A stretch of 64,000 nucleotides of DNA. It comes from Vicinamibacterales bacterium. Lineage in GTDB: Bacteria > Acidobacteriota > Vicinamibacteria > Vicinamibacterales > UBA8438. Numbering within the stretch: the first letter of the stretch is position 1; each line of letters starts with the position of its first letter. The DNA is taken from positions 559,698 to 623,697 of the forward strand of contig CBDCCY010000002.1 in assembly GCA_965215155.1 (NCBI GenBank), given 5' to 3'. Made by a program: the position numbers and the translations under genes. Under the pieces are notes generated by a model. That model was not told the origin of the DNA, did no database searches, and saw only the letters and a program-made list of their open reading frames with translations. This document shows positions 17,833-40,587 of this stretch, piece after piece.

Positions 17833-18797
17833 CTAGCTGTAGGCCCCGAACCCGAAGAACCAGTGCTTCTTGGCGAACGCGTACGCCCAGTGCTCCTCCG
17901 GGATCTCGTTGCCCGGGTCGTACTGGCTGCTCCGCGGCGTCAACTCCGCCAACTCCGCGGACGCCGTCTGCCGCTGCGTCGTATCCCGCGCCCCGTGGCG
18001 CGCCACGAGCTCGCGGACCAGATCCGGGCGTTCCAGCACGATGCAGCCGCGCGTGGTCCGCGCCGCCGTCTCGCGGAAGTCCTTGAGGAACGACGAATTC
18101 GTCATCGTCTCGTAGACGCTCGGCCGATCATGGACGGTCTCGGTCGCGAACTGGATGATCGGACACGGCTCGATGTCCCCGTACGGACTGATGTGGTGGC
18201 TGACGCCGGTGGCCATCGGGCAGAGCGCCTGTCCCTCGTCGTCCCAGTAGGCGTCGACGATGGCGATCGGCAGCTTCGCGCGCATGCCGACGATGAAGCG
18301 GCGCACGCGGAGCACCTCCTCGGGGGTCAGCGCGATCTCGGCCGTCGGCTGCGGGCCGACGACGCGGTACGTGTGGAACCAGGCGTAGTGGACGCCGAGG
18401 TCGATGAGCCGCCGCAGCCACGATTCCTGCACCAGGTCGTCGATGTTCGTCTTGCACACGCTGGTGGCCACGCCCGTCACCAGGCGATTCCGGGTGCACG
18501 CTTCCAGCCCCGCCAGCGACTTGTCGAGGACGGCCGTCCGGCCGCGGCGCTCGTCGCTCACCACGCTGGTCCCCTCGATGCTGACCAGCGGGGTCACGTT
18601 GCCCAGGCGCCGCAACTCGGCCGCCCGCGCGTCGTCGATCAGGTGGCCGTTGGTGAAGAGCTGGAAGTAGCAGTCCGGGTGCGCTGCGAACAGGTCGAAC
18701 AGGTCGGGGTGCAGCAGCGGCTCGCCCCCCAGGATGCCGAAGTAGCTGTTGCCGTGCCGCTTGGCGTCGCCGACGATGCGGTCGAGCTCGTCGATCT
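17833..18797 (-). pseudogene. radical SAM enzyme, C-terminal about 320 codons only (5' part displaced to 40393..40587)
   Basis: Frame of ORF 17833..18615, which stays open upstream to about 18797 and reads EIDELDRIVGDAKRHGNSYFGILGGEPLLHPD...FTNGHLI...VSIEG. There is no CxxxCxxC here. Upstream of 18797 the frame is antisense junk. Confidence 0.7.
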
Positions 18798-18800
18798 CGG

Positions 18801-19583
18801 ATGACCTGGGCGGAGGCCCGCGGGGCGTTCGCCTACTACCTGCCCGACCTCCCGCTGCTCGGCGGCACGGTGCGCGACCGCGCCATGCGCTGGCTCGAGC
18901 CGGAGAACTTCGGGTACGCCCGCTTCGATCGGAACAATCCGGAGGGGTTCTACCGTCGCACCAAGAACCAGACAGGGGAAGTGGCGGCGCGCGCGGATCA
19001 GCTCGACCCGCAGTGGCGGCTGGTCATAGAGCACCCCGAAGGCGGGCGCCTCTCGGGCATGCAGGTGACGCGCGACACCGTCCTGAAGCGGGCGGCGGCC
19101 GACCAGATACGCGCCGACTGGCTCAAGCAGGGCATCCTGACGGCGGCGTTCGCCGCACGCGGCGCCGGCCTGTCCGTAGGAAGCTGCTCTTCCATCGTCG
19201 GCCCGGCGGGCGAGCGCTACGGCTGGAAGATCGGGTGGCCGGTGAGTCAGGCCTGCGCGCTTGCCCAGGAGTGGGTGCTCCTGTTCGTTCCGCTCGCCGG
19301 CGTGATGATTGTCCTCGCCTGGCGGCGCCGGGACATCGCCTCGGCCCTGCTGCTGGCGCCCATCGTCTACGGCTTCGGCATCCACGCGGTGGCGACGCAC
19401 TTCATCGAGCGCTACTCGCGGCCCCTTATCCCGGTCCTGGTGGTGGTGGCCGCGCTGGCGGCCCAGGAAGGCTGGCGCCGGTTCCAGGGCGCCCGGCAGC
19501 GGCGGCGGGCCGGCGGAGCCGGCAGCCAGCCCGCGGCCGGAGTCGGCGACCGGACACGGGCGGCCGGCGTCACCGATCGCTGA
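18801..19583 (+). CDS. membrane protein, possibly the C-terminal part of a GT-C (family 39/83-like) glycosyltransferase; possibly 5'-truncated
   Basis: ORF 18801..19583. A soluble region is followed by two C-terminal TM helices and HFIERYSRPLIPVLVVVAALA. It abuts the truncated radical SAM fragment back-to-back and is followed 10 nt later by a GT2 gene. Confidence 0.35.
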   Translation: MTWAEARGAFAYYLPDLPLLGGTVRDRAMRWLEPENFGYARFDRNNPEGFYRRTKNQTGEVAARADQLDPQWRLVIEHPEGGRLSGMQVTRDTVLKRAAADQIRADWLKQGILTAAFAARGAGLSVGSCSSIVGPAGERYGWKIGWPVSQACALAQEWVLLFVPLAGVMIVLAWRRRDIASALLLAPIVYGFGIHAVATHFIERYSRPLIPVLVVVAALAAQEGWRRFQGARQRRRAGGAGSQPAAGVGDRTRAAGVTDR

Positions 19584-19593
19584 CCCCGAGACG

Positions 19594-20529
19594 ATGTCGC
19601 AAGCATCCCATCCGGCGGGACGCCGCCCCGAATCGCTGCTGGTGATAATCCCGGCATTCAACGAGGAGGAGTCCATCGGTGAGGTGGTGGCCGGGGTCCG
19701 GGAGTGCGCCGGCCGCCTGGCCGAGTCGGGACTCCGGATGCAGGTCTGCGTCATCGACGACGGCTCCACCGACGACACGGCCGGGGCCGCGCGTACGGCC
19801 GGCGCCGATCAGGTCCTGGTCCACGGCCGCAACCTCGGGTGCGGCGCCGCCGTCCGCAGCGGGCTGCTCCACGGCCGCCAGCAAGGGGCCGACATCGCGG
19901 TCAAGCTGGACGGCGACGGCCAGCACGACCCGGCGGACATCCCCGAGCTGCTCCGTCCCATCCTCGAGGACCGCGCCGACGTCGTCTACGGGAACCGGTT
20001 CTCGCGCATCACTTACCGCATGCCCTTCGTGCGGCGCGTCGGCAACTCGCTCTTCCGCGGGTTGATGCGCTGGCTGACCCACTGGGACGTCAAGGACTCG
20101 CAGCCCGGCATGTTCGCCGTCAACGACGCCTACCTGCAGGTCTGCTTCATCCCCGGCGACTACAACTACACCCAGCAGGTGCTGCTGGACGCCTACCTGA
20201 AGGGGATGCGGTTCGACTGGGCGCCGATAGCGTTCCACCGGCGGAAGGCCGGCGAGTCGTTCGTCTCGCTCAAGTACCCGTTCAAGGTGCTGCCGCAGAT
20301 CCTGATGCTGATGGTCCTCGTCCGCCCGCTCAAGGTCTTCCTGCCGGTGGCGGCGTTCTTCCTGGCGGCCGCCGGCATCGTCTTCGTGGTGGAGCTGGCG
20401 CTCTGGTTCGCCGGGTACACGGCGCGGCCGGTCGAGAACTCCAACCTCGTGCTGGGCATGGCCATGTTCGGCCTGAACACCGGGTTCTTCGGGCTGCTCG
20501 CCGAGATCGTCGTGCGCCGCACGTCGTAG
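19594..20529 (+). CDS. family 2 glycosyltransferase (polyprenol-phosphate sugar transferase-like) with C-terminal TM helices
   Basis: Frame of ORF 19309..20529, ATG 19594. LLVIIPAFNEEESIG, VIDDGSTDDT and KLDGDGQHDP (DxD region), then two TM helices. Confidence 0.8.
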   Translation: MSQASHPAGRRPESLLVIIPAFNEEESIGEVVAGVRECAGRLAESGLRMQVCVIDDGSTDDTAGAARTAGADQVLVHGRNLGCGAAVRSGLLHGRQQGADIAVKLDGDGQHDPADIPELLRPILEDRADVVYGNRFSRITYRMPFVRRVGNSLFRGLMRWLTHWDVKDSQPGMFAVNDAYLQVCFIPGDYNYTQQVLLDAYLKGMRFDWAPIAFHRRKAGESFVSLKYPFKVLPQILMLMVLVRPLKVFLPVAAFFLAAAGIVFVVELALWFAGYTARPVENSNLVLGMAMFGLNTGFFGLLAEIVVRRTS

Positions 20530-20572
20530 GCGCATTCGCCTGAGCCCCAGCACCCACCGCCCCAGTGACCTT

Positions 20573-20599
20573 GCGCGCCCTCACGGGCGCGTTGGGAGT
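20573..20599 (+). repeat. partial copy of a dispersed REP-like element (GCGCGCCCTnnCGGGCGCGTTGGGAGT)
   Basis: Near-identical to 42956-42985 and, in inverse orientation, to 62325-62357. It sits just after the GT2 stop and is cut off by the transposase fragment. Confidence 0.6.
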
Positions 20600-20602
20600 T
20601 TC

Positions 20603-21220
20603 CTCCGAAGCTCACCTCGGCGGCGGTCCATCCCACCCGCCGCGTGACGGCGGGCGATAGCGAGGTACCGTGCAGACCCAGGGCCTGGTCGCGCGGGCAC
20701 ACCCCCTTGCGGCAGGCGTCACAGTGGTAGTAGGCGCGCTGCAGGGTCACCGGCCCCAACAGCGTGGTGAACGTCTTCGGGCGACGGCCGGCGTAGCGCG
20801 CCCGCCGGCCGCAGGCGCACGCGGTGGTCGAACCCGAATGGTCGGAATCGTCCGCGTTGCAGCGCTGCGCCATCCACTGCGCGGCGATGTCGAGGCTGCG
20901 GTGACGGACTGCCTGCTCCAGCGCTTCGAAATCCGCCGCGTCGACGGGCCCGGGACCGATGAGCGCATCGACTTCGGCCCCGATGGCGGCTACGAGCGCT
21001 GCGCCCGAGCCGCTTCCAAGGCCCGGTCCGCCGTGGCGAGCGCGCGGCGGCGAACCGTCTGCACGAACGTCTCGAAGTCCTGCGGAGTCCCGCTCCTCTG
21101 GCTCAGGAACGCGTCGAGGTCGGCTTCCACCGCCGACCGCAAGGCGGCGAACAGCTCCTTCCGGGAGCCCCCTTTTTCCGCCGCGTCAGCAATCCGTTCC
21201 GGCATCTGCGCCTCGGGCAT
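20603..21220 (-). pseudogene. ISKra4-like (zinc-ribbon type) transposase, N-terminal fragment, frameshifted and 3'-truncated
   Basis: ORF 20990..21220 (MPEAQMPERIADAAEKGG...FETFVQTVRRRAL) continues in another frame as ...FEALEQAVRHRSLDIAAQWMAQRCN...CACGRRARYAGRRPKTFTTLLGPVTLQRAYYHCDACRKGVCPRDQALGL...AAEVSF. Similarity stops at about 20603. Confidence 0.5.
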
Positions 21221-21445
21221 GGTCGGAGTCCTCCCTACCCGACGTATCGGTCGATCAGCGCTCGCTCGATACCCCGTACGGCAAGACCCTCAACTTTCTT
21301 GTCGTGCACCCAGGAGGCGGACGGGGAAGAGGCAGAAGCATGGGAGGATCGAGGGATCGCGGACAATCAGATGGGGGCACGGACGGAGAACAGGCCGGAG
21401 GCGGAGAGCACGGACGACACGATGCGCAGCAGGGCAGCGACGGTG

Positions 21446-21775
21446 AGAGTGTGATCCAACCTGTCGTCTGATCACAACAAGGACCGAGGCGAACTTACAC
21501 CGATGATGCCGCAGTAAGGGTGTAAGGAGGACAGGCGGCCGAACTTACACTTCCAGTCACACCTGAACTTACACCCGGCAACCAGCCAAGTCGTTTCCTA
21601 TCAACAGATTCCCACATCACAGACCCACCCCCACGTGCAGACAAAAGGGTCGGGTGGGAGTAGGGGAGCGACCACGCGGAAACCTGGCGGTTTCCGGCCC
21701 CCGCCGGTGCTCCTCCGTCACACCTGCGGGGTCGCGGTCGCTCCCCTTGAAATTGTCCCTCCAGGAAGGGTGAGA
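21446..21775 (+). repeat. repeat X, uninterrupted copy (X-A): hairpin, AACTTACAC iterons and an 84-nt multi-hairpin block
   Basis: Matches 26696-26848 plus 29678-29852 at most positions by eye. Contains TGTGATC-N13-GATCACA (21450-21476), AACTTACAC at 21492, 21542 and 21566, and an inverted GTGTAAG at 21520. Confidence 0.8.
21663..21746 (+). other. 84-nt structured block inside X-A (outer 11-bp stem enclosing two hairpins); function unknown
   Basis: GGGGAGCGACC...GGTCGCTCCCC outer stem. Inner GGAAACC-tggc-GGTTTCC hairpin. Inner CCCCGC...GCGGGG hairpin. The paralogous block is 29744-29827, where the third stem is a perfect 12 bp. Confidence 0.4.
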
Positions 21776-22321
21776 ACCTGCCGTCTCCGCCGGCCGGCCG
21801 GCTCGCGTCGCTCGCCAGCGTCGGGCCATGAACGCTGCCCCGCCTGCGGCGCTCTCCGGCAGCGCGTGCAGGTCGGGCGGAGCCGGCCGGCGGCTTCCAC
21901 CAGAGGCGGGTAGCTACGGGACGGCCGGCGTGTCAACGCGCTTCGCACGTTCTCCGCTGCGCTTCGACCCTGTCGGGTGACACACCGTCCGCCCCTCCGC
22001 TCAGACAGCCGTTGTGGGCCTTGCGGCCCGGCCTGGACGGGAACCGTCCCGTCGTCCCACTCGGCTCGCCCGCGGATGGACCCCCGATGCGGAAAAATGC
22101 GGGCGGCGAGATTTTTCTTTGCCCGTGCAGGTCGCTTCATAGAGTGCGGAAAGGTGCTCATCCGGTCCTGTCCAGTCTCAGCAGGTCGGAAGGCGCCCAG
22201 AAGGGTCTAATCCGTGCAAAGTGCTGCATTGCATGGGTTTGCGCTGTTTGTGGTACGTTGTTCTCCGAACCGCGGGGCGTGATATCGCCGCGCAATCCCG
22301 CCATCTCAAGGAGGGCTGAAG

Positions 22322-22570
22322 ATGACCACGAACCGAGACTTCACCCGCCGGCGTGCGAGCGTCGGAAACCCCCTGCCCAGGCTGCTCACCCTGCGCGACG
22401 TGACCGAGCTGACGGCCCTGTCCCGCTCGGCCGTCTACGCGCTGATGAGCGAGTCCAGGTTCCCGAAGCCGCTCCGCGTCGGCAGCCGCGCCGTCCGGTG
22501 GGTCGAGCACGAGGTGCTCGACTTCATCGCCACCCGCCCCCGCGCCGGCTCGGAGCGGCCCACTCGGTAA
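22322..22570 (+). CDS. AlpA-family HTH regulator/excisionase
   Basis: ORF 22322..22570 preceded by AAGGAGGG. LLTLRDVTELTALSRSAVYALMSESRFPKPLRVGSRAVRWVEHEVLDFI matches the AlpA/prophage CP4-57 regulator pattern. Confidence 0.8.
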   Translation: MTTNRDFTRRRASVGNPLPRLLTLRDVTELTALSRSAVYALMSESRFPKPLRVGSRAVRWVEHEVLDFIATRPRAGSERPTR

Positions 22571-22575
22571 CGGCC

Positions 22576-24477
22576 ATGCTCGACCTGCTCGACCGCCTGG
22601 AGGGCGTCAGGGAGTCGGGTGCGGGCTGGACCGCGCGATGCCCGGCGCATGCCGACCGCCGGGCATCGCTCGCGGTCGGCCGCGGCGACGACGGCCGCTG
22701 GCTCCTGAAGTGCCACGCCGGCTGCGCGTTCGGCGCCGTCGTCGGCGCGCTCGGCATCGACGCCCGCGACCTCTTCCCCTCGAACGGACACCGCCACCCG
22801 CCCGCGCGGCGGGAGGCGGCCGTCTACGACTACGACGGCGTGTTCGAGGTGGTCCGCTACGAGCCGAAGGACTTCCGGCAGCGGCGGCCGGACGGGCGAG
22901 GCGGCTACCTGTGGAACCTCGACGGCATCACGCCGCGGCTCTATCGCCTGAACGACCTGGCCGGCCGCGATGCGGCCGTCGTGGTCGAGGGCGAGAAGGA
23001 CGTGGACCGGCTGTGGTCGCTCGACCTGCCGGCGACCTGCAACGCGGGCGGAGCCGGCCAGTGGAGGTCCACGCATGCCGAGCAGCTCAAGGTTGCCGGC
23101 GTGCGGTCGGTGGTCGTCGTTCCCGATGCCGACGACGCGGGCCGGAGACATGGTCAGGCGGTTGCGCGAGCGTGCGCAGCGGCCGGACTGCGGGCGCGGA
23201 TCGCCGCGCTGCCCGACGGACCCAAGGACATCTGCGCGTACCTTGACGACGGTCACGACAAGCGCGAGCTGGCGGAGGTGATCGCCGCTGCCGAGTCGTA
23301 CGACGGGGCCGCCGACCTGCCGGCCGGGGTCGTGCGGTTGAGTGACGCCGATGTCGAGGGTACGGCGGCCGAGGGACCGCCGGCCGTCGCGCGGCTGATC
23401 GCCCACGCGGGGCGGGTCACGTTGCTGCACGCGCGGGAGAAGGCCGGCAAGAGCACGCTGATCGGCGCCGCGGTGGCCGCCGTCACCCGCGGGCGGTCGT
23501 TCCTGGGCATGCCCACCGTTGCGGGCGACGTGCTGTGGGTCGGCGAGGAGGCGGCCTCGGATGTCAAGGCGCGGCTGTTCCAGTGGGACGCGGACCTGGA
23601 ACGGGTGTACTTCGTCGGCCGGCCGAGCCGGGACCTGGAGCACGAGGCGTCGCTGCGACGGCTGGTCGAGCGGCTGCGGCCGGTGTGGGTCGTCATCGAC
23701 ACCTGGTCGCACTACCTCCAGGTCCATCGCGTGAAGGACACGGCCGGCCCCGGCGAGCAGGGGCTGCTGATCGGCGAGGTCGTCAGTCTGGCCCGCGAGT
23801 CCGGGTCGGCGTTCGCCGTCTCGCACCACAACCGGAAGAACCCCAGCGCCAGCGCCGAGTCCGGCGACGCGGAGGGCGAGTACCGGGACTCGACGGCGAT
23901 CGGCGCGGCCGTGGACATGATCGTGTCGTTGAGCCGGGCGAAGATGCCGCGGGCGCGGCGCCTCACGCCGTCCGGCCGCTGGCCCGAGGAGCCGCTGACC
24001 GTCGTCCTCGAGCCGGGCGTCGGCTACGAGCTGGCGCCGGACCTGGAGGAGGACGAACAGGCCCGTGCGGACGGCAAGCCGCCGGCCCGCCCGCTCCCGG
24101 AACGCGCGCTGCTGCACCTGCTCCGGTGCGATCCGCTGGCCCGGCCTCATGCGAGCACCCTGGCCGACGCGCTCGATTGCAGCGGACGGCGGTACCAGGA
24201 CCTGCGCGCGGCGCTCGATGCGCTGCTCGACGACGGGCTCGTCGACCACGCCCAGCGCCCTGGCGCGACGAAGCAGCGGGACCGGGGCTACGCACTGACC
24301 GCCGAAGGCCGCGAGCGGGCCGAGGCTCTCCGCGACCAGTCGATTTCCGCGATTTCCACCAAGGGAAACGGGGCGGAAACGCTCGGGAACACGCCGGGAA
24401 ATCCAACTCGATTTCCATTTCCGCGATTTCCCCCCCAGGGGGTGGGCGGAAATGGAAATGGAAATCGAACTGCTTGA
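22576..24477 (+). CDS. bifunctional primase (zinc-binding + Toprim) / RecA-like AAA (RepA/AAA_25-type) replication protein
   Basis: Frame of ORF 22012..24477, ATG 22576, 5 nt after the alpA stop. CPAHADRRASL...KCHAGC; Toprim VVVEGEKDVD...VVPDADDAGRRHG; P-loop-like AREKAGKSTL. The last about 45 codons run through the iteron array. Confidence 0.75.
   Translation: MLDLLDRLEGVRESGAGWTARCPAHADRRASLAVGRGDDGRWLLKCHAGCAFGAVVGALGIDARDLFPSNGHRHPPARREAAVYDYDGVFEVVRYEPKDFRQRRPDGRGGYLWNLDGITPRLYRLNDLAGRDAAVVVEGEKDVDRLWSLDLPATCNAGGAGQWRSTHAEQLKVAGVRSVVVVPDADDAGRRHGQAVARACAAAGLRARIAALPDGPKDICAYLDDGHDKRELAEVIAAAESYDGAADLPAGVVRLSDADVEGTAAEGPPAVARLIAHAGRVTLLHAREKAGKSTLIGAAVAAVTRGRSFLGMPTVAGDVLWVGEEAASDVKARLFQWDADLERVYFVGRPSRDLEHEASLRRLVERLRPVWVVIDTWSHYLQVHRVKDTAGPGEQGLLIGEVVSLARESGSAFAVSHHNRKNPSASAESGDAEGEYRDSTAIGAAVDMIVSLSRAKMPRARRLTPSGRWPEEPLTVVLEPGVGYELAPDLEEDEQARADGKPPARPLPERALLHLLRCDPLARPHASTLADALDCSGRRYQDLRAALDALLDDGLVDHAQRPGATKQRDRGYALTAEGRERAEALRDQSISAISTKGNGAETLGNTPGNPTRFPFPRFPPQGVGGNGNGNRTA
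24335..24470. repeat. iteron-like array of GATTTCC/GGAAAT(C) motifs ending in a 59-bp imperfect palindrome (24409-24467) with a C7/G5 centre
   Basis: CGATTTCCATTTCCGCGATTTCCCCCCCAGGGGGTGGGCGGAAATGGAAATGGAAATCG, with at least 10 motif copies across the interval. Lies between the convergent primase and integrase genes. Confidence 0.75.
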
Positions 24478-24536
24478 GGGTCGATCTCTGGGCGGAGTCG
24501 GGGGCCACGGACCCCACGTCACGGAATCGGAATCCG

Positions 24537-25784
24537 TCACCGGCGCAGGGGGATGACCTGCCCCCGCTCCTCACCGAGATAGGCGCCCCAATCGTCCATG
24601 AGGCGTCGGCGGCGCGCGAACAGGTCGGACCGCGCGTAGGCCGCCTCGACCTGATTCCGCACCTTGTGGGCCAGCGCCGCCTCGACGACCTCACGCGGGT
24701 GGTCGGTCTCTTCGGCCGCCCAGTCCCGGAAGCTGGACCTGAAGCCATGCGGCACCGCCGCGATGCCCAGGTCCCGGATGAGCTTCGAGACCGCGGCGTC
24801 ATCGAGCGCCTTCCCGCGGACGCTCGGAAAGACCAGCCCGGCGAACTCGGGCCGGGTCGCGACGCCGCGGAGCTGCTCCGACTCGCGCAGGACCCCGGCC
24901 GCCCGGCCGCACAGCGGCACCCGGTGCTCGCGTTGCGCCTTCATCCGCGCCGCCGGAACCGTCCACACCCGCGCGACAAGGTCGACCTCGTCCCACGTCG
25001 CCCCCCGCGCCTCGCCGGACCTCGCGGCCGTCAACACGAGAAACTCGAAGGCCAGCTTCGTCCCGAGCCACGCATCCGAGCGCTGAACGGCCGCAACCGC
25101 GGCGGCGACCTCGCCGTGCGGCAGCGCCGCCCGGTGCTGCACGAGCACGGGACGCTTCGGCAGCGCCGCCGTGACCGCGTCGCCGGCTGGATTGTCGCTG
25201 CGGTAGCCCTGCGCGATGGCCCACCGCATGACCGTGCCGATGCGATGGCGCACCGACCGCGCCATCGCGTGCTTGCGCGTCCAGATGGGCAGCAGGACCG
25301 TCATGACGTCGGCCGTCGTCACCTGGTCGACGCTCTTGCCGCCGAGGTGCGGAAGCACATGGTCGCGCAGGCTCGCCCGCCACTGCTTCGGGGTCTTGCC
25401 GGCCCGCCACGCCTCCCCGTGGATGGCGATCACCTGCTCGACCGCCTCCTCGAACGTCGGGATCCCCTCGGAGCGGCGCCGGTCCGCGAGCGGGTCTCCG
25501 CCCTCGCGGGCGGCCTTGCGGTTGGCGAGCGCCTTCTCGCGGGCCTCGGCCAACGACACCAGCGCGTAGCTGCCGAGACCGAGCGCGCGGGACCGCCCGC
25601 GGATGACCAGCCGTTGCACCCAGCGGCGCGCCCCGGACGGGTCGACGTGCAGATAGAGGCCATTCCCGTCAGCGTAGCGGCCCGCCTCGGCGACCGAACG
25701 GCAGAAGGCGGCGGAGAGCGCCTTGTCGGGATGGCGGCCCCTGCGCTTGGTGGCTCGGGGTTTCCTGGGCAGGTCCATCGTCAT
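24537..25784 (-). CDS. int: P4-type tyrosine integrase (DUF4102-like N-terminus + phage integrase catalytic domain)
   Basis: ORF 24537..25784. GNGLYLHVDPSGARRWVQRLVIRGR (arm-binding type N-terminus). Catalytic LTAARSGEARGATWDEVDL, HGFRSSFRDWAAE and VEAAYARSD. Confidence 0.88.
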   Translation of the reverse strand: MTMDLPRKPRATKRRGRHPDKALSAAFCRSVAEAGRYADGNGLYLHVDPSGARRWVQRLVIRGRSRALGLGSYALVSLAEAREKALANRKAAREGGDPLADRRRSEGIPTFEEAVEQVIAIHGEAWRAGKTPKQWRASLRDHVLPHLGGKSVDQVTTADVMTVLLPIWTRKHAMARSVRHRIGTVMRWAIAQGYRSDNPAGDAVTAALPKRPVLVQHRAALPHGEVAAAVAAVQRSDAWLGTKLAFEFLVLTAARSGEARGATWDEVDLVARVWTVPAARMKAQREHRVPLCGRAAGVLRESEQLRGVATRPEFAGLVFPSVRGKALDDAAVSKLIRDLGIAAVPHGFRSSFRDWAAEETDHPREVVEAALAHKVRNQVEAAYARSDLFARRRRLMDDWGAYLGEERGQVIPLRR

Positions 25785-25916
25785 CTATCCCATTCCCAAT
25801 TCTCTCGCGGAATATAGCGAAAGTGTGGAGACGGGTCAAGACGACGGAGCGGGAGTAGTGGCCTTTTACTACGGTATTCAGTGCGTATTTCGCAGCACGG
25901 CGCGGAACGGCGCTGG

Positions 25917-26117: not shown

Positions 26118-26147
26118 TGGCGATCAGCGAGTTGGCCACGACCGCCG

Positions 26148-28529: not shown

Positions 28530-28532
28530 CGC

Positions 28533-31561: not shown

Positions 31562-32648
31562 CTAGTGTGCACCGTCAGAAATACGTGAGCAGTAACGCTT
31601 CAGGGATTCCAGGATCTGCTCGGCGGTCTTCGTCCAGACGAAGGGCTTGGGGTCTTCGTTGTAGACCGCCAGGTACTCCTTGATCGCCGCCTCGAGTGCT
31701 TGGGTGCTGCGATGGGTTCCACGCCGGATCTGCTGCCGGGTGATCTCGGCGAACCAACGCTCTACCTGGTTGAGCCACGATGCGCTCGTGGGCGTGAAGT
31801 GCAGGTGATACCGAGGACGCCGTGCCAGCCAGTCGTGGATCATCGCCGTCTTGTGCGTGCCGTAGTTGTCCAGCACCAGGTGGATGTCGAGGTCGGGCGG
31901 CACCGCCTTGTCGATCACGGCGAGGAAGCGCTTGAACTCCACCGAGCGGTGCTTCCGAAAGCACCTGCCGATCACCTCGCCGGTGGCGGTGTTCAGGGCC
32001 GCGAACAACGAGGTCGTGCCGTGCCGTCGATAGTCGTGTGTCCGCTGCTCCGGTGCTCCCGGACGCATCGGCAACACCGGCTGGGTACGGTTCAACGCCT
32101 GGATCTGCGACTTCTCATCCACACACAGCACCACCGCTCGCTCCGGCGGATGCAGGTACAGCCCCACGATATCGCGCACTTTCTCGATGAACAACGGGTC
32201 TCGCGACAGCTTGAAGGTCTCGCTGCGATGGGGCTTGAGCGCGAACGCGCCACACGCGGCCGACGGTCGAAGCGCTCAGCCCGCAGGCTCGGGCCATCGA
32301 CTCCCGGCTCCAATGCGTCGCCCCCCGTGGGGTCGTCTCCAGCGTCCGGACCACGACCCGTTCGACGTCCTCGTCCGACACCCGGCGCGGCGCGCCCGGC
32401 CGTGGTTCGTCCAGCAAGCCGTCGCAGCCGTTGCGCAGGAACCGCCGCCGCCACTTGCCGACCGTGGCCCGCGTCGTGCCCAGAGCCTGCGCCACGACCT
32501 GGTCGCTCCGTCCCGCGGCGCTCTGCAGCACGATGCGTGCCCTCAGGGCCAGAGCCTGCGCGGTATTGCGCCGGCGCAGCCAACCCTCCAGTTCCTCGCG
32601 CTGTGCGTCCGAGACCTCCGGGACCTCTCGTGTGTAATGGTTCGGCAC
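31562..32648 (-). pseudogene. IS630 transposase, frameshifted (2-bp deletion in a GCGCGCG run)
   Basis: ORFs 32115..32648 and 31562..32194 together equal the copy 1 protein. Copy 1 reads GTGTGGCGCGCGTTCGCG and copy 2 reads GTGTGGCGCGTTCGCG (about 32258-32262). Confidence 0.85.
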
Positions 32649-32720
32649 GGCCCTCCTCGCTTCCGGGCCGACCGTACCACGAGCCGATTCTACTGGTCAA
32701 AAACTTCAGGCGTTGGACAC
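31565..32720 (-). mobile_element. IS630-family insertion sequence, copy 2, 1156 bp, inverted relative to copy 1
   Basis: Same termini as copy 1. TA at 31563-64 and 32721-22. The reconstructed target is GCC-CTAG-TGT inside the GT2 gene. Differs from copy 1 by a 2-bp deletion and at least one substitution. Confidence 0.85.
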
Positions 32721-32877
32721 TAGTGTCTCTGGTGGTCGGCGTTCGTCGCCGTTCGTGCGCCGCGTTGCTGCTCCCGCTGGTCTTGGCGACGATGCATCTG
32801 AGCTGGGCGGTCGGTTTCTTTACCCCGTTGGGGCGCCGGGGTCGCGGCCGGCGACCGACGCGGTCGGCGGAACCGCG

Positions 32878-34029
32878 ATGAAGTCGGAGCAGGGTCGCGG
32901 CGATCGATGGCCGAAGATTCTGATCGTCGGTCCGCTAGGCTCCGGGGAGTCCGCCACCAACGTGATTGGAGGGAACAAGGTTTCGTGCGACGACCTGGTC
33001 CATGAATTGGAGATGCGAGGTTTCGAGCTGGATATGGTCGATACCTCGGGACGCGTGACCAATCTCCCCCGCTGGAAAGTCCAGGCGAGTCGTCTTGCGA
33101 GGTTCCTGCGGATGGTCCGAGGTGTCGTGAAGAAGATCCGGCACTCGCAGCTCGTCTTCGTGTTCATTGCTCCCTCTTCCGCGACGGTCGTCGCTTCGTC
33201 GGCCTGGATTCTCTGCAGAATAGCCCGTCGCCCCTTGGTGCTGCGGTTGTCCGGGGCCGATCTCGATTCCGTGTATTGCAAGTACGGTGCCCCGGCCCGC
33301 TGGCTGGCGGATCGCACCTGGATGCGCTGTTCGCTGATGTACGTCGAAACACAGCGGTTGCGCCGGATCTTCGACAACCGAACCAGTTGTCGCTGGTTGC
33401 CCAACATAAGGAACGTCGAGGCGCATGCTGCGGTCGGGCGCGAGGAGCGTCACAAGAAGGAGATCCGCAAGCTGATCTTCATCTCCCGACTGCACATGGA
33501 CAAGGGGCTGGCCGAGGCGCTCCGTGCTTGCCGCGACTTGCCGGACCACTGTCATCTCCAGGTGTTCGGACCACGCATGTCCGACACGGACTTTTCCCTG
33601 TTCGCGGGGCATCCCAGGGCGAGCTACTGCGGCGTTCTGCAGCCCGAGGAGGTGCCGCAGGTCATGCGCGACCATGACGTGCTGCTGTTTCCCAGCTACT
33701 ACCCGATGGAGGGTTATCCCGGCGTCATCATCGAGGCCTTTCAGTGCGGCTTGCCGGTCATCGCCGCCAGGTGGCGAGACGTTCCGGAACTCGTCGAGCA
33801 TGAGGAGAACGGCCTGGTGGTGGAACCGCGCTCCGCTGCGGCCGTGCGGTCTGCAATCGAACGGTTGCTGAACGATCCCGGTCTGTATCGGCGGCTTTGC
33901 GAGGGTGCGCGGCGGCGCGGCGACGACTTCCGCAGCAAGAACTGGTTCGGGCCCGTCGCCGAGGACCTGCGCGCGCTGACGCTGGGTACTGGGGCGATAG
34001 CGACCGGAACGTATCTCTCGAAGCGGTGA
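32878..34029 (+). CDS. family 4 (GT-B) glycosyltransferase
   Basis: Frame of ORF 32713..34029, ATG 32878. C-terminal GT4 signature DVLLFPSYYPMEGYPGVIIEAFQCGLPVIAARWRDVPELVEHEENGLVV. Confidence 0.8.
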   Translation: MKSEQGRGDRWPKILIVGPLGSGESATNVIGGNKVSCDDLVHELEMRGFELDMVDTSGRVTNLPRWKVQASRLARFLRMVRGVVKKIRHSQLVFVFIAPSSATVVASSAWILCRIARRPLVLRLSGADLDSVYCKYGAPARWLADRTWMRCSLMYVETQRLRRIFDNRTSCRWLPNIRNVEAHAAVGREERHKKEIRKLIFISRLHMDKGLAEALRACRDLPDHCHLQVFGPRMSDTDFSLFAGHPRASYCGVLQPEEVPQVMRDHDVLLFPSYYPMEGYPGVIIEAFQCGLPVIAARWRDVPELVEHEENGLVVEPRSAAAVRSAIERLLNDPGLYRRLCEGARRRGDDFRSKNWFGPVAEDLRALTLGTGAIATGTYLSKR

Positions 34030-34066: not shown

Positions 34067-35422
34067 TCAGCGGGCGCCGAGGACAACGCGGAATGTCCGC
34101 CAGGCGTGGACGGCGTCGTCAGGCCGCGGCAGCCAGATTGAAGGCCAGCGCATGCGAGCAGCTATTCCGAACGCCGCCGCGAGCAGGATGAGTCGGCAGA
34201 TCATGCCCAGGGTCAGCCCCCAGGCAGCGGCCGCTACGCCGACCGCCGGATAGAGCACGGAAATCGCAACAAGATTCGCCGCCAGTCCCAGGGAGAAAGC
34301 GCAGGAACAGACGCCCGGGCGATCGATACCCTTGAAGTATGTTCCGAGTATGCCGGCGCAGGCACAGGCGAGCACTCCGGGGGCGAGGATCCACAGCAGC
34401 GGGACTACCGGCAGGAAGGCTCCGGGGAACAGGATTCGAACCAGCGGCGTGCTGATCGCGAGCAGGAGGAGAATCGCGGCCACGGTACTGCACGACACGA
34501 CCCGCAGGCAGAGCGCCGTCAAATCCGGGCGGCCGCTGCCTGCGATGCGGGGCAGCAGCGCGTTGCCGACCGCGTCGGAGATCATGCGAAGCCGGAACAT
34601 GAGCGCGTGCGCGGTTGCGAACAGGCCGATTTCCGCCGGGCTCGCGATCAGCCCGAGAAGGAGAACGCCCGCGCTCATTTCTAGCTCGCCGGCTATGCCC
34701 GCGGGGTGAAATCGCAGACCGTACGCGATGACTCGCGTGGAGACGGTGCGGAGCGGATTCACCAGAACCAGCCCGTGATGGCGCCGCAGGTACCACGCGC
34801 ACAAGGCCACGGTGCAACCGTGCGCGGCGGCGACCGCGAGCACGGCGCCGTCCACGCCGAGTCCCGATAGCCGCACGAGGACAAGAAGAACGAGGGCGTT
34901 CACGGCGAGGTGAAGCAGGGTGAACACCGCGAGACGTCCGAAGTGGCGGAGGGCCGCGAGTTGACGCTCCATGGCGCCCGAGAACGCCATGAGCGGAACC
35001 AGGGCAAGCGCCAAAAAGAAGGTACGCGTGTCCGCCTGCTGAAAGAAGGCCATCTCACCGTGGACCAACGGGATCGCCAGGGAGACGGCCAGGGCTCCGC
35101 CGACGAGGCAGATCGCGAGGGCGGCGCCGACGCCTTCCGAGACGGTCGCCTGTCTCGTGATGACGAAGTACTGCGCGCCTTCTCGCGCCCCCGGCGTGAA
35201 GAGCACGCTGAGAAAACTCGCGAACACGACGCACAGGGCGAAGCTGCCGCGGCCTGCCGGCAACAGCATGTAGGCCAGAAGACTCTGGATCGCGAGGCCC
35301 ACGACGACCTTGCCGACACGGGTCGCGAACACGATGGCTGCGTCCCGCCCGCCGGTCGTGTGCGGACGTCGTGGTGTATGGGGCTTTTCCGGTGTCACGG
35401 CTGCGACGTTTTCTGGCGCCAC
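34067..35422 (-). CDS. polysaccharide flippase (Wzx/MOP superfamily-like) multi-pass membrane protein
   Basis: ORF 34067..35422. About 12 hydrophobic segments, with the N-terminal pattern typical of oligosaccharide flippases. The start is uncertain. Confidence 0.6.
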   Translation of the reverse strand: MAPENVAAVTPEKPHTPRRPHTTGGRDAAIVFATRVGKVVVGLAIQSLLAYMLLPAGRGSFALCVVFASFLSVLFTPGAREGAQYFVITRQATVSEGVGAALAICLVGGALAVSLAIPLVHGEMAFFQQADTRTFFLALALVPLMAFSGAMERQLAALRHFGRLAVFTLLHLAVNALVLLVLVRLSGLGVDGAVLAVAAAHGCTVALCAWYLRRHHGLVLVNPLRTVSTRVIAYGLRFHPAGIAGELEMSAGVLLLGLIASPAEIGLFATAHALMFRLRMISDAVGNALLPRIAGSGRPDLTALCLRVVSCSTVAAILLLLAISTPLVRILFPGAFLPVVPLLWILAPGVLACACAGILGTYFKGIDRPGVCSCAFSLGLAANLVAISVLYPAVGVAAAAWGLTLGMICRLILLAAAFGIAARMRWPSIWLPRPDDAVHAWRTFRVVLGAR

Positions 35423-35577
35423 GCCAGTTGCTCGAACAACGCGACGTACGCGTCGGCGGCTTTCTCGGGTGAGAAGTCGGCGGCTCGCGCCCGCAGCGCT
35501 TTCTCCGGCGGGTGCTCGCCGCGCAGGGTCTTGACCAACTGTATTCGGTTAGCGGGTGATTTCCCAATAGACACGGG
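35395..35577 (-). pseudogene. C-terminal remnant of a glycosyltransferase gene
   Basis: Tail of ORF 35395..36087. Only ...NRIQLVKTLRGEHPPEKALRARAADFSPEKAADAYVALFEQLA looks protein-like. Upstream sequence switches to IS66-related DNA at about 35580. Confidence 0.4.
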
Positions 35578-35840
35578 CTGAGAGTGGACTTGGAGTGCGG
35601 AGGTTTCAGCGCGTCGACGCGGTGGCTGGAACCGACAGTGTGTTCGCGCGGCTTGCCTCCCCCGTCGCGATGCCACGGACACCGAACGCCAAGCCGGCGC
35701 GCGGGAGCATCGGCGCCGATTTCTCCGTGAAGTCCGGTGGCGACCGCGGGCTGCCGCGGGCGGTGCGGTCGTCCGCCTCCTGCGGCGGGGCGCCACGGGG
35801 ACCGGTCGCCCGTCGAGGTCGTATGTCGGACGTTGCCGGC

Positions 35841-36353
35841 CTACGGGAGCGGCGGCGGAAGGCCGAGGAGCTCGGGGACAACGGGCTCGACCGCGCGCAA
35901 CATCGCGGCGATCAGCGGAGGCAGGTCGAGGCCGCGTTGGCGCGCGGTGCGCACGACGCTGGCCAGGACCTGCTGGGTGTCGGCGCCGTGGCGGGTGCGG
36001 TTGCCGCCGCACACCTTGCGGATGACCACGGCGGGCCGGAGGGCCTGTTCGGCGCGCCAGTTGGTGGCGTCGAGCGAAGGGTCCCACAAGAATAGGAACA
36101 CAGCCGGGAATTCGGTGGCCAGGTGCGCCGCGAAACGCTCGGCGTCGTCCAGCGGCGGCGGGGCGTCGACCAGCCGCCCGAGCCGGGCCGTGAGTCGGCC
36201 GCGGGCCGTGGCCATCCCGTGCTCGCTCAGCGCTCCCGCGTTGCAGCGGTCCCGCAGGTCGAGACCGGCCCGCAGGACCGCCGCCACGTCGCCCGCCCAG
36301 GGACTGTTCGGATAGTCCTCCCGGAGCTGCTTGCAGCGTTGTAACAGGTGATT
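35841..36353 (-). pseudogene. IS66-family transposase (TnpC), 3' fragment downstream of the RIT insertion
   Basis: ORF 35841..36287 extended upstream reads NHLLQRCKQLREDYPN...FLFLWDPSLDATNWRAEQALRPAVVIRKVCGGNRTRHGADTQQVL. It continues the HQTCLNH ending of the fragment at 39740..40392. Confidence 0.75.
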
Positions 36354-36462
36354 CTTATTCCGATATCGGAATAAGAACCACTATGCCGATGTCAGGATTA
36401 TTCCGATGTTGGTGCAGACGCCCCTGTTGTTGGCGGCATCTGCACCAAACTGATCGGCATAA

Positions 36463-37452
36463 TCACAGCCCTTCGAGAAAGGCCAGGAGCGCGTCGGATG
36501 GTTGATAGCGGCCCCCGCGGACTTCGGCTGGGGTGGTCCTTGCGAGCGCCCGTTCCTTCAGGGCGAGGTCGGCATGGATGTAGATGTCGGTGGTGCGGAC
36601 GTGTTCGTGTCCGAGCCACAGGGCGATGACGGTGTTGTCGACCCCGGCGTGCAGCAACCGCATGGCTGCGGTGTGACGCAGCGTGTGCGGGGTGACGGTC
36701 TTCTCGCGGAGCGATGGGCAGGCGTGGGCCGCAGCAGCCACGTGCGTCGTGACGCGTTGCGCGAGGGCGTCTCGGCTGAGCGGTTTGCCTGTCCGCGTAG
36801 GGAAGACTGGTGCCTCTGGTGAGCTGGCGCATTCGGCCAGCCAGGCACGCAGGGCGGCGGCCACCGGCTTGGTGAGCGGAGTGACCCGGTGCTTGCGCCC
36901 TTTTCCAAGGCAGTGGACGTGCGCACCTCGCGCCAAGTGCAGGTCCGTGCAGCGCAGGCCGGTGAGTTCGGCGGCGCGCAATCCGGTCTGGATCGCGAGC
37001 GCGAGGAGAGTGTGGTCGCGGCGCCCGGTCCACGTGGTGCGGTCGGGGGCGGCGAGCAGGGCGTCGACTTCGAGGTCGGACAGGAAGGTCACGAGCCCAC
37101 GTGGACCGCGCGTGGGGGGCATCGCGAGTACGCGGGCAATGACGGCTGCCTGCTCGGGATGCTCCAGTGCGGCATAGCGGAACAGGGCATGAATGGCCGA
37201 CAACCGCGCGTTGCGGGTGCGCGCGGTGTTCGCGCGGTCGTGCTCGAGGTGGGCCAGGAATCGTCCGATGAGGGGTGCGTCGAGATCGCCGAGTTCCAGG
37301 TCCGAGGGGGCCTTGGCGAGGTGGACCGCGGCAAAGCGGACGAGCATCCGCCACGCGTCGCGGTAGGCAGCGACCGTGTGCGGGCTGGCGTGGCGCTGGT
37401 GCACGAGCCGCTCGGTGAAGAACGCCTGGAGCGTGGGAGCAAGGGCGCTCAT
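36463..37452 (-). CDS. tyrosine recombinase, third gene of the trio (RitC position)
   Basis: Frame of ORF 36463..37737. ATG 37452 overlaps the upstream stop (ATGA). Catalytic region HTLRHTAAMRLL and GHEHVRTTDIYIH. Confidence 0.8.
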   Translation of the reverse strand: MSALAPTLQAFFTERLVHQRHASPHTVAAYRDAWRMLVRFAAVHLAKAPSDLELGDLDAPLIGRFLAHLEHDRANTARTRNARLSAIHALFRYAALEHPEQAAVIARVLAMPPTRGPRGLVTFLSDLEVDALLAAPDRTTWTGRRDHTLLALAIQTGLRAAELTGLRCTDLHLARGAHVHCLGKGRKHRVTPLTKPVAAALRAWLAECASSPEAPVFPTRTGKPLSRDALAQRVTTHVAAAAHACPSLREKTVTPHTLRHTAAMRLLHAGVDNTVIALWLGHEHVRTTDIYIHADLALKERALARTTPAEVRGGRYQPSDALLAFLEGL

Positions 37453-38375
37453 GCTGAGGCCCCCAGATGGCGTTCGAGGCGGTCTGAGGCCAACTGCATC
37501 AATGCCGGTGCCGCCGACAGGTACCAGTATGTGTACTTGGGGTCGGCGTGCCCGAGATAGGTGGCCAGGAGCGCGATTCGCGCCGCCGGATTCTGGCCCT
37601 GTCGGTAGGCGTCGAGCAGCGTGCACGTCGCGAACCGATGTCGGATGTCGTGCAGCCGTGGCCGACAGGCGGCTGCGTGCGGCCGGAGGCCCGCGCGCTG
37701 GACCAGGGTGCGGAACGTCTGCTGTACATTGCGGCACAGCAGCCTCGTGCCCGCGGTAGAAACGAACAGCGCGGCGGTGTCCCGGGCCGCCAGCCGGTCC
37801 GCGCGGAGCAGATACTGCTGGACCGCGGCGCTGGCTGTGGGGTGCAGCGGAAGTGCACGGGACTTGTCGAATTTGCCGTGGCGGACGGTGATCAGCCCCT
37901 GCTCGGCGTCGAAATCGTGCCGATCGAGCGCGATGGCTTCACCGACGCGCATCCCGGTCACGACCAGCAGACCGATCAGGGTCCGATACGTTGCGGCCCG
38001 ATGCCCGGTGCGCAGCCCCGATGTGGCGACCAGCAGGGCCGCGATGTCTTCGTCGGTGTAGGGGTACGGCGTGGCGCGCTGGGCGCGCGCCTGCAACAGG
38101 TCGGCGGGCGGTATCTCGGTTGCCGGGTCGATCGTGCGCACGAAGGTCGCGAAGCCGCGGACGACGGTGAGTCGGCTGGCCCACCACGCCCTCGGGTCCT
38201 TCCCGGCGGGGAGTGTCGCCCAGGCGAGGGCGGTCTCGGTGCGCAGGCGCGTCTCCCCGCGGTCTTCGAGATAGGTCAGGAATTGCGCGAGGAGCTTCTC
38301 CGCGCGCGCCAAGCGGTAGCCCAGCGCCCGGCGCATCGTCAGATAGTCGGCCAGGGCTTGACGCAGGAAGGTCAT
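37449..38375 (-). CDS. tyrosine recombinase, second gene of the trio (RitB position)
   Basis: Frame of ORF 37449..38393. ATG 38375 overlaps the upstream stop (ATGA). HDIRHRFATCTL and LGHADPKYTYWYL. Confidence 0.8.
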   Translation of the reverse strand: MTFLRQALADYLTMRRALGYRLARAEKLLAQFLTYLEDRGETRLRTETALAWATLPAGKDPRAWWASRLTVVRGFATFVRTIDPATEIPPADLLQARAQRATPYPYTDEDIAALLVATSGLRTGHRAATYRTLIGLLVVTGMRVGEAIALDRHDFDAEQGLITVRHGKFDKSRALPLHPTASAAVQQYLLRADRLAARDTAALFVSTAGTRLLCRNVQQTFRTLVQRAGLRPHAAACRPRLHDIRHRFATCTLLDAYRQGQNPAARIALLATYLGHADPKYTYWYLSAAPALMQLASDRLERHLGASA

Positions 38376-39592
38376 GCTGCACCTCCAGGCCACGCGCGTG
38401 CGATCGTGCGCAGGGCGTCATGGTCGACCTTCGCGTAGATCGCCGTGGTCTGCAGGCGGGCGTGACGCAGGAAGTGCTGGATCTCGGACAGGGGGGCGCC
38501 CGCTCGGAGCAGTTGCGTTGCCGCGAAATGACGCAACCGATGTGCGTGGACGACGCCGAGGCCGGCTCGCTGCGCGGCGGCGGCCACAATCTGCGTGACC
38601 CCGGTCGGGCTCAACGGGCCCAGAGGCGCGACCAGGCGGACGAAGACGGTGCGCCCCTGCGCCCGGGTCGGCCGTTGGCGGAGATATGCGGCCACCGCGT
38701 TGCCCACATCGGTCGGGAGAGGCATGCGCTCGGCCCGATTCCCCTTGCCGTGTACGACGACCTCGCCGGCGCGCCAGTGCACGTCGTCGAGACGCAGGGT
38801 CGCCACTTCGGCGGCCCGCAGGCCGAGGCGGGCCAGCGTGGTGATGACCGCAAAGTCGCGGCGCCCTCCCAGCGTCCGGGGGTCGCACGCGGCGAGCAGT
38901 CGCCGGACGTGGTCGGGCTCGAGGCGCGGCGGAAGCGCCACCAGTCGTCGGCCGGCTACCGACGGGACGGCCGTCGCCAGCGAACGCTGGACCACCCCGG
39001 TGACATGCAGGAAGACCAGCAGCGAGCGCAGTGCGGTCGACGTCAGTTGCGCGGCCCGGCGGGATTGCTCGGCACAGCGCGCCACCATGAACGCAGTCAC
39101 GTCGGCCTCACCGAGTTGCTCGAGGTCCAGCCCGAGGCCGTCGGCCGAGATGCAGCCGCGCAGAAAGGGGCGGACCGCATCGACGTAGCCCTGGGCGGTG
39201 GCTTCGCCCAGACCCCGTTCCACGGTGAGGTAGTGCCGGTAGAGCACCAGGGTCTTGTCCACGGGCCCTGTCGGGATGGGCGTCGTCGCAGGCGGGATCG
39301 CGCCACGAGCCCGGAGGTACGTCAGCAACGGGCGCAGCGCCTTGCCCGTCAGATGCCTCTTGTAGCCGGCCTTCTGCCGTGCTTGCAGAAACTGCTGCGT
39401 TCGCTCTGGCAGGTCGCCGATGTCGAGGCCTCTTGCCTGCAGCCACCGGCTGACGGCCGACGCCAGAGACAACTGCGTCCGCAGCGAGCGCGGTGTGTAG
39501 CCTTGCTGCGCAAGCTCCGTCGCGAAGCCCGCCGCGAACGGCTTGAGCGAACCAGCGATGGCGACGACGGGAACGCGTGACGGATCACTCAT
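38372..39592 (-). CDS. tyrosine recombinase, first gene of the trio (RitA position)
   Basis: ORF 38372..39592. HRLRHFAATQLL and LRHARLQTTAIYAKV. SAM-like N-terminal domain. Confidence 0.8.
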   Translation of the reverse strand: MSDPSRVPVVAIAGSLKPFAAGFATELAQQGYTPRSLRTQLSLASAVSRWLQARGLDIGDLPERTQQFLQARQKAGYKRHLTGKALRPLLTYLRARGAIPPATTPIPTGPVDKTLVLYRHYLTVERGLGEATAQGYVDAVRPFLRGCISADGLGLDLEQLGEADVTAFMVARCAEQSRRAAQLTSTALRSLLVFLHVTGVVQRSLATAVPSVAGRRLVALPPRLEPDHVRRLLAACDPRTLGGRRDFAVITTLARLGLRAAEVATLRLDDVHWRAGEVVVHGKGNRAERMPLPTDVGNAVAAYLRQRPTRAQGRTVFVRLVAPLGPLSPTGVTQIVAAAAQRAGLGVVHAHRLRHFAATQLLRAGAPLSEIQHFLRHARLQTTAIYAKVDHDALRTIARAWPGGAA

Positions 39593-39739
39593 GAGAGCCT
39601 CCTCTCTCGTGGGTCGTGAGAGAAGAGTCTCCGTCCGTCAGCGCGCGGTGATTATCCGGATCGTCTCGTCGAAGACGCCCTGCACGACCGGGACATCAGG
39701 GCGGACATCGGAATAATCCCGACATCGGCATAGTGGTTC

Positions 39740-40392
39740 AGACACGTTTGGTGCAGGCCGTCGTAGCAGCGATACGGCGCCCATCCGTCGCGCACGAGCA
39801 CGCCGACGTAGTCGGTCCCCAGCACCGTGGCGGCATCGGCGAACCCGCGGCCGGGGCAGATGGCGTAGACCGTCGTCTCCGGCGTGACGAACGTCCACAG
39901 CCAATGGCGCTCGCCGCCGACGCGCCAGCCCGTCTCGTCCGGCGTGACCACGGGCGCGTTGCGGACCTGCTCGCACAGTTCCGTGTAGGCCGGCGCGGCG
40001 GCACGGGCCGCCCGGTGCAGCACGTGGGCCAGCCCGCCCGGCGTCACCTGCAGCCCGAACGTGGTCCGCAGCAGGTGCGCGACCTTCGCCAGCGGCACCC
40101 CCATCTCCGTGTGCAGCTCGACCAACAGCGCCACGACCGCGGGACCGAGCTGCACGCCCGCCGCCCCCAGCGCGTCCGAGGTCTGCAGCTCGTGGCGGCC
40201 CTGCACCCGCCGCTGACACCGCGTGCAGTGACCAACCTCGATGGCAAAGCGCCGCACCACCGGGCGCACCACCGGCAGGTCTTCCTGATACTGCGACGCC
40301 TCGCGGGTCCTTTCGACCGCGCCGCCGCAGTCCGGACATTCCCTCGGAATCGGCGCCGCGTGGGTCTCGTCGACCTGCGCCGGACGCCGGCG
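39740..40392 (-). pseudogene. IS66-family transposase (TnpC), middle fragment, lacking about the first 100 codons
   Basis: Part of ORF 39652..40587. PRECPDCGGAV...GHCTRCQRRV...VVTPDETGWRVGGERHWLWTFVTPETTVYAICPGRG...VLVRDGWAPYRCYDGLHQTCLNH. Fused upstream in-frame to radical SAM sequence. Confidence 0.75.
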
Positions 40393-40587
40393 GCAGCCAT
40401 GGCAGCGCAACTGGCAGCCCGAGATGACCGAGATGAAGAGGAACGGCGGGAAGTGCTCGCCCCGCTTGAGCCGCCGCTTGTAGAGCTGCACGGAGCGGAC
40501 GCCCTTGACGCCCATGTTCCAGACCAGCTTGCGCAGGGCGCGCGGGTCGGGCTCCGTCAGCATCCGCCGGGCGAGTCCGAGCACCAC
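40393..40587 (-). pseudogene. radical SAM enzyme, N-terminal about 65 codons with the CxxxCxxC motif (rest at 17833..18797)
   Basis: Start of ORF 39652..40587: MVLGLARRMLTEPDPRALRKLVWNMGVKGVRSVQLYKRRLKRGEHFPPFLFISVISGCQLRCHGC. Similarity then switches to IS66 TnpC. The start is 4 nt after the upstream gene stop. Confidence 0.7.

Follow-up and report, generated by a model that had tools for sequence, protein, structure and literature searches.

A radical SAM gene of a Vicinamibacterales bacterium split by a 21.6-kb insertion with microhomology at its junctions

The repair of DNA breaks can bring foreign or displaced DNA into bacterial genes. In Streptomyces ambofaciens, repair of double-strand breaks induced with I-SceI captured endogenous DNA fragments of 30 bp to 18.8 kb (PMC5869714), and in Sinorhizobium meliloti non-homologous end joining by Ku and LigD captured heterologous DNA (PMC6379672). 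Here we describe a radical S-adenosylmethionine (SAM) gene that is split by 21.6 kb of inserted DNA in a Vicinamibacterales bacterium (Acidobacteriota; GenBank assembly GCA_965215155.1, contig CBDCCY010000002.1). The stretch that was analysed, called the window, is 64,000 nucleotides long. The insertion resembles bacterial end-joining capture in its arbitrary insert ends, the small target deletion, the short microhomologies at the scars and the lack of a target duplication. Unlike the experiments in Streptomyces and Sinorhizobium, which started from an induced break, it is a natural event in an uncultured member of the Vicinamibacterales. One of its junctions also has longer homology (10 of 11 nt) than typical Ku-dependent joins.

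Other described processes share some of these features. In microhomology-driven template switching, break-induced replication and short-patch double illegitimate recombination, as here, two illegitimate joins at microhomologies place ectopic DNA in a gene and a few target bases are lost. Homology-facilitated illegitimate recombination requires a homologous anchor on one side of the insert, and no such anchor was seen at this locus. As after transposition of an insertion sequence (IS) of the IS66 family or of a composite transposon, a gene is disrupted and an IS66 copy stands at one border of the insert. In contrast to the products of transposition, this copy lacks its left end and 101 codons, the other border carries no IS, the target is not duplicated and 32 nt of it are deleted. 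Recombinase-in-trio (RIT) elements, some of which were reported inside transposase genes (PMC3414803), are also represented. The RIT element of the window agrees with the published ones in being a 3.4-kb multi-copy unit, in which three tyrosine recombinase genes stand side by side with overlaps of 4 nt and terminal inverted repeats are present. That study laid its emphasis on groups other than the Acidobacteriota, the host phylum in this case, and here the element is a passenger that forms neither border of the inserted block.

The class of event is already known, and the locus is otherwise an ordinary case of recent pseudogenisation in a region rich in mobile elements. As a natural case of a large insertion that bears no transposase or integrase signature, it is a clean one. 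Each of the two parental sequences can be recognised at 95-99% identity, so that the junction chemistry can be read directly.

Two ends of one radical SAM gene

Alignment to homologs confirmed that two segments of the minus strand, 40393-40587 and 17833-18799, represent the two ends of one radical SAM gene encoding 397 amino acids. The 5' piece has a GTG start and comprises 65 codons, through the CxxxCxxC motif. Its translation (40587-40393) runs from VVLGLARR to FPPFLFISVISGCQLRCHGC, and the same frame then continues as an IS66 transposase. The 3' piece holds codons 77-397 and the stop codon, plus 1 nt of codon 76; its translation (18798-17833) begins with EIDELDRIVGDAKRHGNSYFGILGGEPLL and reads through to the stop. 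When concatenated, the pieces matched 397-residue proteins with an E value of 6.5e-253 and 92-94% identity. They abut without overlap in the protein alignment, and the sole residues unaccounted for are the 11 codons for WVDVEAPSRKI. An earlier note on this DNA had proposed a single gene with its halves in the original order and on the same strand, from which 10-25 codons were missing. The alignment bears out the first proposal and places the loss at the lower end of the predicted range. Both pieces exist as that note described them, but it had put the border of the C-terminal piece at 18797, whereas the in-frame sequence starts at 18798 and homology extends to 18799.

The 5' piece contains the cluster-binding motif of the radical SAM superfamily (PF04055) as CQLRCHGC, where relatives have CQLRCQGC. 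The 3' piece covers positions 30-151 of the 166 positions of the Pfam Radical_SAM profile, so that it lacks only the part with the Cys triad, whose absence had been noted before.

The gene is uninterrupted in 14 close Vicinamibacterales relatives, with flanking sequences of 81-91% nucleotide identity, and in 66 more distant genomes. In the 14 close relatives it lies intact between the same neighbour genes, and these loci thus represent the empty sites that the earlier note had suggested looking for in sister genomes. DNA alignments of the window to all 14 loci (L001-L003 and eleven more) end at nt 195 of the gene and restart at nt 228. Therefore exactly 32 nt of the gene are missing and the insert corresponds to positions 18800-40392 of the window (21,593 bp).

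Neither piece carries a frameshift or a stop codon. The ratio of nonsynonymous to synonymous substitution rates (dN/dS) of the pieces compared with L001 was 0.09-0.11, against 0.07 for an intact pair, and the neighbour genes gave similar values. Because this ratio is unchanged and the reading frames are undamaged, the disruption is judged from these comparisons to be recent. The enzyme encoded by the split gene should be inactive, since the 3' piece has no Cys triad and the 5' piece runs on into a disrupted transposase.

Junctions and the mode of insertion

At the right junction a microhomology, GCCATGGCTGC (40393-40403, minus strand), is common to the radical SAM gene (GCCAGGGCTGC) and the transposase gene tnpC of IS66 (GCCACGGCTGC). 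The relatives' radical SAM genes read CTGCCAGGGCTGC followed by TGGGTG and intact IS66 copies CCGCCACGGCTGC followed by CGCCGG, while the window has CTGCCATGGCTGCCGCC, or CTGCCATGGCTGCCGCCGG in a longer reading. In a simulation with these sequences and randomly placed junctions, a match of 6 exact nucleotides had a probability of about 0.003 and a match of 10 of 11 nt one of about 3e-4. The microhomology has the same codon phase in both genes, which explains why the radical SAM piece is fused in frame to the first tnpC fragment (39733-40392, minus strand; codon 102 to an NH motif). The remaining part of tnpC, with its stop at 35841, lies at 35549-36354 on the same strand beyond a 3.4-kb insertion. 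The two flanking fragments rejoin to 388 residues, which match residues 102-487 of a complete IS66 TnpC (489 residues, encoded by a single open reading frame) with 96% identity, in agreement with the earlier recognition of mid-protein TnpC sequence in this open reading frame. When set against two intact copies, the IS66 element proves to lack its first 382 bp, which comprise the left end and 101 codons, and its right terminus at 35549 is located inside the block and not at its border.

The residue at the position of the His in the CHGC sequence of the window is Gln in 44 of 45 radical SAM homologs (CQGC) and His in none, while the transposase has GRHGC followed by RRRP at this point. For this reason the His is most simply explained as transposase-derived, which the alignments make probable. 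The N-terminus quoted in the earlier note is indeed that of a radical SAM protein, but its last three residues (HGC) fall in the sequence shared with the transposase. An exact 34-nt pattern that spans the right junction had no match in the genome contigs or the metagenome contigs searched.

At the left junction the shared sequence is the dinucleotide CG (18798-18799). The donor reads GAGTACGGGCG, which ends in GGGCG, followed by GATGACC; the target reads GTCGATCTCG, which ends in ATCTCG, followed by ATCTTG; and the window has GTCGATCTCGGATGACC. The open reading frame that starts at 18801 (18801-19583, plus strand) has few homologs, every one of which reaches far upstream. It encodes the C-terminal 260 residues of a membrane protein of 533-550 amino acids, broken at codon 274 of the 533-residue form. 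Residues 1-273 are cut off, so that a truncation previously considered possible is real. An exact-sequence look-up retrieved a donor-type contig (L138) that is 99.4% identical at the nucleotide level to window positions 18798-20601. This contig extends further upstream through an intact gene for the 533-residue membrane protein, which is followed by the identical family-2 glycosyltransferase (GT2) gene. Compared with L138 and two short-read contigs (L139 and L140), the window has a compensating +4/-4 indel pair at 19223-19240 which turns GRSVGW of the truncated membrane protein into GWKIGW. Either a real variant or an error in the long-read consensus could explain this difference.

The end points in the donor are thus arbitrary: tnpC is broken at codon 102 of 489 and the membrane protein at residue 274 of 533, and both genes are intact elsewhere. 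Comparison of both ends with intact donor-type sequences revealed no IS termini at the block borders, as the earlier note had stated for both ends. A cryptic IS66 end at the left border was considered and rejected, since IS66 ends begin with TTAGCGGGT and the block ends with GATGACCTGG. There is no target duplication at the insert borders, where 32 nt of the target are deleted instead. Repeats of the att type are not present at the borders either; the longest substring shared by the two junction regions has 8 nt, a length at chance level (random mean 7.6 nt).

The most economical reading, to which we assign a probability of about 0.6, is a single illegitimate, microhomology-assisted insertion accompanied by a small target deletion. 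It is favoured because the end points lie in the middle of genes, 32 nt were lost, the scars show microhomology and neither a duplication nor border repeats are found. A break or a stalled replication end would have arisen inside the radical SAM gene at about codons 65-76. One end may have paired with the 11-nt near-identical stretch of the IS66 transposase gene, and the other would have joined by a 2-nt match inside the membrane-protein gene, with loss of the 32 nt of target. The 21,593-bp segment would have been copied or cut from a polysaccharide locus of the same lineage, already carrying the IS66 element with its RIT insertion, IS630, ISKra4 and an integrase/primase module, and the mobile elements inside it are passengers that had arrived before in insertions of their own. 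Such a product could arise when a fragment is captured during alternative or non-homologous end joining, or when replication switches template twice, primed by microhomology. We infer both the single event and the choice of repair pathway from this pattern. It had been argued before that the present structure needs more than one event. This is no longer necessary: the microhomologies of 10 of 11 nt and of 2 nt, the loss of 32 nt and the lack of duplications or repeats fit a single insertion, and several IS-driven steps are not required. In this interpretation non-homologous joining can shift tens of kilobases within soil Acidobacteriota genomes.

Some observations weigh against the single insertion. 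The 2-nt CG overlap at the left junction is not significant by itself (p about 0.2 in the simulation). At the right junction the T of the window's CAT codon fits neither set of relatives, the radical SAM genes having CAG and the IS66 copies CAC; therefore a variant in the donor copy or a point change is needed. An IS66 copy with CAT was not found, and the 50 matches of a 22-nt pattern in JGI metagenomes included none related to IS66. An exact 34-nt pattern that spans the right junction had no match in the genome contigs or the metagenome contigs searched.

Within the single-insertion reading, we tentatively consider that the block may be a dispersed 21.6-kb duplication of the genome's own polysaccharide locus and not a transfer, formed by two microhomology-primed template switches as in microhomology-mediated break-induced replication. 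To our knowledge such template switching is hardly documented in natural bacterial genomes. A hint at copying comes from sample ERZ21848999, in which the contig over the left end of the block is covered 7.5x, about twice the 4.0x of the contig that holds the radical SAM upstream region, and the junction is exactly the point at which the assembly graph branches. The short-read contigs L139 and L140, from samples ERZ21848999 and ERZ21849000, both start exactly at the CG of the left junction, as would be expected from a branch of the assembly graph between the donor and insertion contexts.

Another contig from ERZ21848999 (L141, NODE_19766) is 100% identical to window positions 42880-40493 (2,388 nt), including the first ~95 nt of the 5' piece. 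Beyond this stretch it is about 10% divergent and runs through an intact radical SAM gene. It was rejected as an isogenic empty site due to this divergence through the rest of the gene, and it probably represents an assembly path of mixed strains. Since these 2.39 kb of upstream sequence occur there with 100% identity, the strain of the window is present in this sample, and an intact radical SAM allele coexists with it.

A history in several steps, which we consider possible but clearly less probable than the single insertion, would start with transposition of IS66 or of an IS-bounded unit into the gene, after which deletions or recombination between IS copies trimmed the ends. The right junction looks exactly like the product of a microhomology deletion between the radical SAM gene and an adjacent IS66 copy; a slippage event that deletes about 400 bp between the direct repeats (10 of 11 nt) of the two genes would yield it, and several active multi-copy elements occur in the region. 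The left end, however, is located in the middle of a gene with 2 nt of homology, has no IS terminus and is unlike the IS66 inverted repeat. Therefore an illegitimate join is needed in this history as well. Furthermore, the trimming would take two deletions independent of each other, both ending no more than 32 nt from the site first targeted although at least 382 bp and at least 800 bp of the insert were removed; no target duplication has survived, and three or more events are needed. The multi-step history ranks second because the left junction stays an illegitimate join and because more events must be assumed.

It is improbable that the block is a mobile or integrative unit with unrecognised ends that was moved by a recombinase of its own (the RIT trio or a P4-type integrase) or by a transposase. 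Four tyrosine recombinases and several transposases are encoded in it, but at both ends it cuts into genes of which intact versions exist elsewhere, these ends show neither inverted nor direct terminal repeats, and the 32 nt of target were lost, neither duplicated nor conserved. The RIT, ISKra4 and IS630 elements, moreover, have complete ends of their own well within the block.

An assembly artefact, with the contig chimeric at one or both junctions, appears very unlikely. The right junction does lie in a multi-copy IS66 family. An artefact would however require two independent false joins, 32 nt apart in one gene and in the correct order and strand, with only 11 nt and 2 nt shared at the joins, which is too little for an assembler overlap. 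The proteins of the window map to an 854-kb contig, and in two other assemblies the left junction is precisely the point at which short-read contigs break.

A programmed intervening element of the type of the sigK skin element or the Anabaena nifD, fdxN and hupL elements, from which a resident recombinase would rebuild the gene, would agree with the halves being on the same strand and with the recombinase genes between them, but is refuted by the frame and repeat tests, since precise excision would give 195 + 967 = 1162 nt, out of frame and without 11 conserved codons, no direct repeats are present at the borders, and no relative examined has the element.

Contents of the inserted block

Comparison with relatives indicates that the block is a mobile-element-rich piece of a polysaccharide-synthesis locus that belongs to the lineage itself. 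This assignment is made because relatives hold versions of its membrane, glycosyltransferase and integrase genes with 96-99.5% amino acid identity, on other chromosomes or large contigs, and because the IS66 family is resident in Vicinamibacterales genomes. As the ends of each complete element lie inside the block, the mobile elements are considered earlier, separate insertions. The contents listed in the earlier note, with glycosyltransferase genes, several IS types and an integrase module, are borne out: besides the glycosyltransferase genes the block holds IS66, IS630, ISKra4 (a complete copy as well as a remnant), a recombinase trio and an integrase/primase module.

The RIT element inside tnpC (36355-39732, minus strand; 3,378 bp) is bordered by imperfect terminal inverted repeats of 95 nt and has AAYCAC on both flanks. 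Its three tyrosine recombinase genes (38372-39592, 37449-38375 and 36463-37452, minus strand) overlap by ATGA, and exact copies of the proteins occur on 4-11 other contigs. The insertion point in the transposase gene is in a conserved motif, between CLNH and LLQRC. The inverted repeats contain TTATTCCGAT sub-repeats, and the end on the ritC side has a perfect 22-nt palindrome, CTTATTCCGATATCGGAATAAG.

Genes of the polysaccharide locus are distributed over the block. A multi-pass membrane protein of 421 amino acids (34067-35332, minus strand) has 97.9% amino acid identity to the copy of a relative, and a family-4 (group 1) glycosyltransferase is encoded next to it at 32878-34029 (plus strand). 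One GT2 gene, for 311 amino acids, lies near the left border (19594-20529, plus strand), and its exact protein is also found in donor-type contigs. The second GT2 gene is located at 30497-31588 (plus strand), and upstream of it, at window positions 30283-30395, a 39-nt sequence occurs twice, the copies lying 74 nt apart with 95% identity.

A complete IS630-family element (31562-32729, minus strand) is 99.6% identical to an inverted copy outside the block at 11817-12986. The two copies bracket 18.6 kb, a span that takes in the terpenoid genes, the radical SAM 3' piece and the left third of the block, and recombination between them would flip this segment. An inversion between these copies was considered and rejected, because undoing it would place the halves on opposite strands.

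The complete ISKra4-family IS (26849-29668, minus strand) encodes a 537-residue transposase and a DUF4338/DruA-like protein, has the terminal inverted repeat GGGTGCGGCTCTT and is flanked by a 9-bp target duplication, AAGTCCTTT. Its transposase is multi-copy, with exact copies on 4 contigs. The Pfam domain DruA/DUF4338 is named after the Druantia defence system; in the ISKra4-family IS the gene appears to be an accessory gene of the element. A remnant of another ISKra4-family transposase gene is found at 20603-20840 (minus strand).

Between these, a small integrative module (21445-26848) carries a Toprim/AAA_25 primase-helicase gene (22012-24477, plus strand) and a P4-type integrase gene (24537-25784, minus strand). 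Direct repeats of about 326 bp lie on both sides, 21445-21770 corresponding to 26697-26848 plus 29669-29850 with 88-93% identity. The 3' ends of the primase and integrase genes (24336-24746) recur as an inverted partial duplicate at 25929-26283. The repeats and the inverted duplicate suggest repeated or tandem integration.

The interrupted operon and its neighbourhood

The gene upstream of the split gene, a ferredoxin-like gene at 40592-41494 (minus strand), ends 4 nt before the GTG start of the 5' piece. Downstream of the 3' piece lies a gene for a DUF116-polyprenyl synthase fusion protein (16006-17775, minus strand). Both pieces have therefore kept the neighbours previously noted for them. 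The encoded proteins are 88% (ferredoxin-like) and 92% (DUF116-polyprenyl synthase) identical to those of L001. In relatives the gene order is lipoate-ligase-like, cysteine desulfurase (DndA-like), GcvH-like, CobW-like, a 122-residue protein, ferredoxin-like and radical SAM, followed by the DUF116-polyprenyl synthase, a prenyltransferase-like and a squalene-hopene-cyclase-like gene. In the window this operon comprises 13241-18799 and 40393-45522, and the downstream terpenoid genes are now 21.6 kb away from their upstream partners.

The operon is also found in L001-L003 and L008-L087 and is conserved and apparently uncharacterised. A literature search on it returned no paper, and its radical SAM protein has no named NCBIfam family. 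Among 80 genomes from Acidobacteriota, Planctomycetota, Verrucomicrobiota and Armatimonadota, 63 have the core of ferredoxin, radical SAM and synthase genes. The radical SAM gene that is knocked out here is uninterrupted in every relative examined. Because it belongs to an operon conserved across at least four phyla, the genome represents a natural loss-of-function variant of an uncharacterised system with ferredoxin-like, polyprenyl synthase and terpene-cyclase-like genes.

Two repeat structures were observed outside the block. At 47942-48112 there is a perfect tandem duplication with a period of 84 nt (87-nt copies with a 3-nt overlap), and at 51461-57310 there is a run of paralogous repeats of roughly 1 kb with 69-75% identity, corresponding to tandem paralogous genes.

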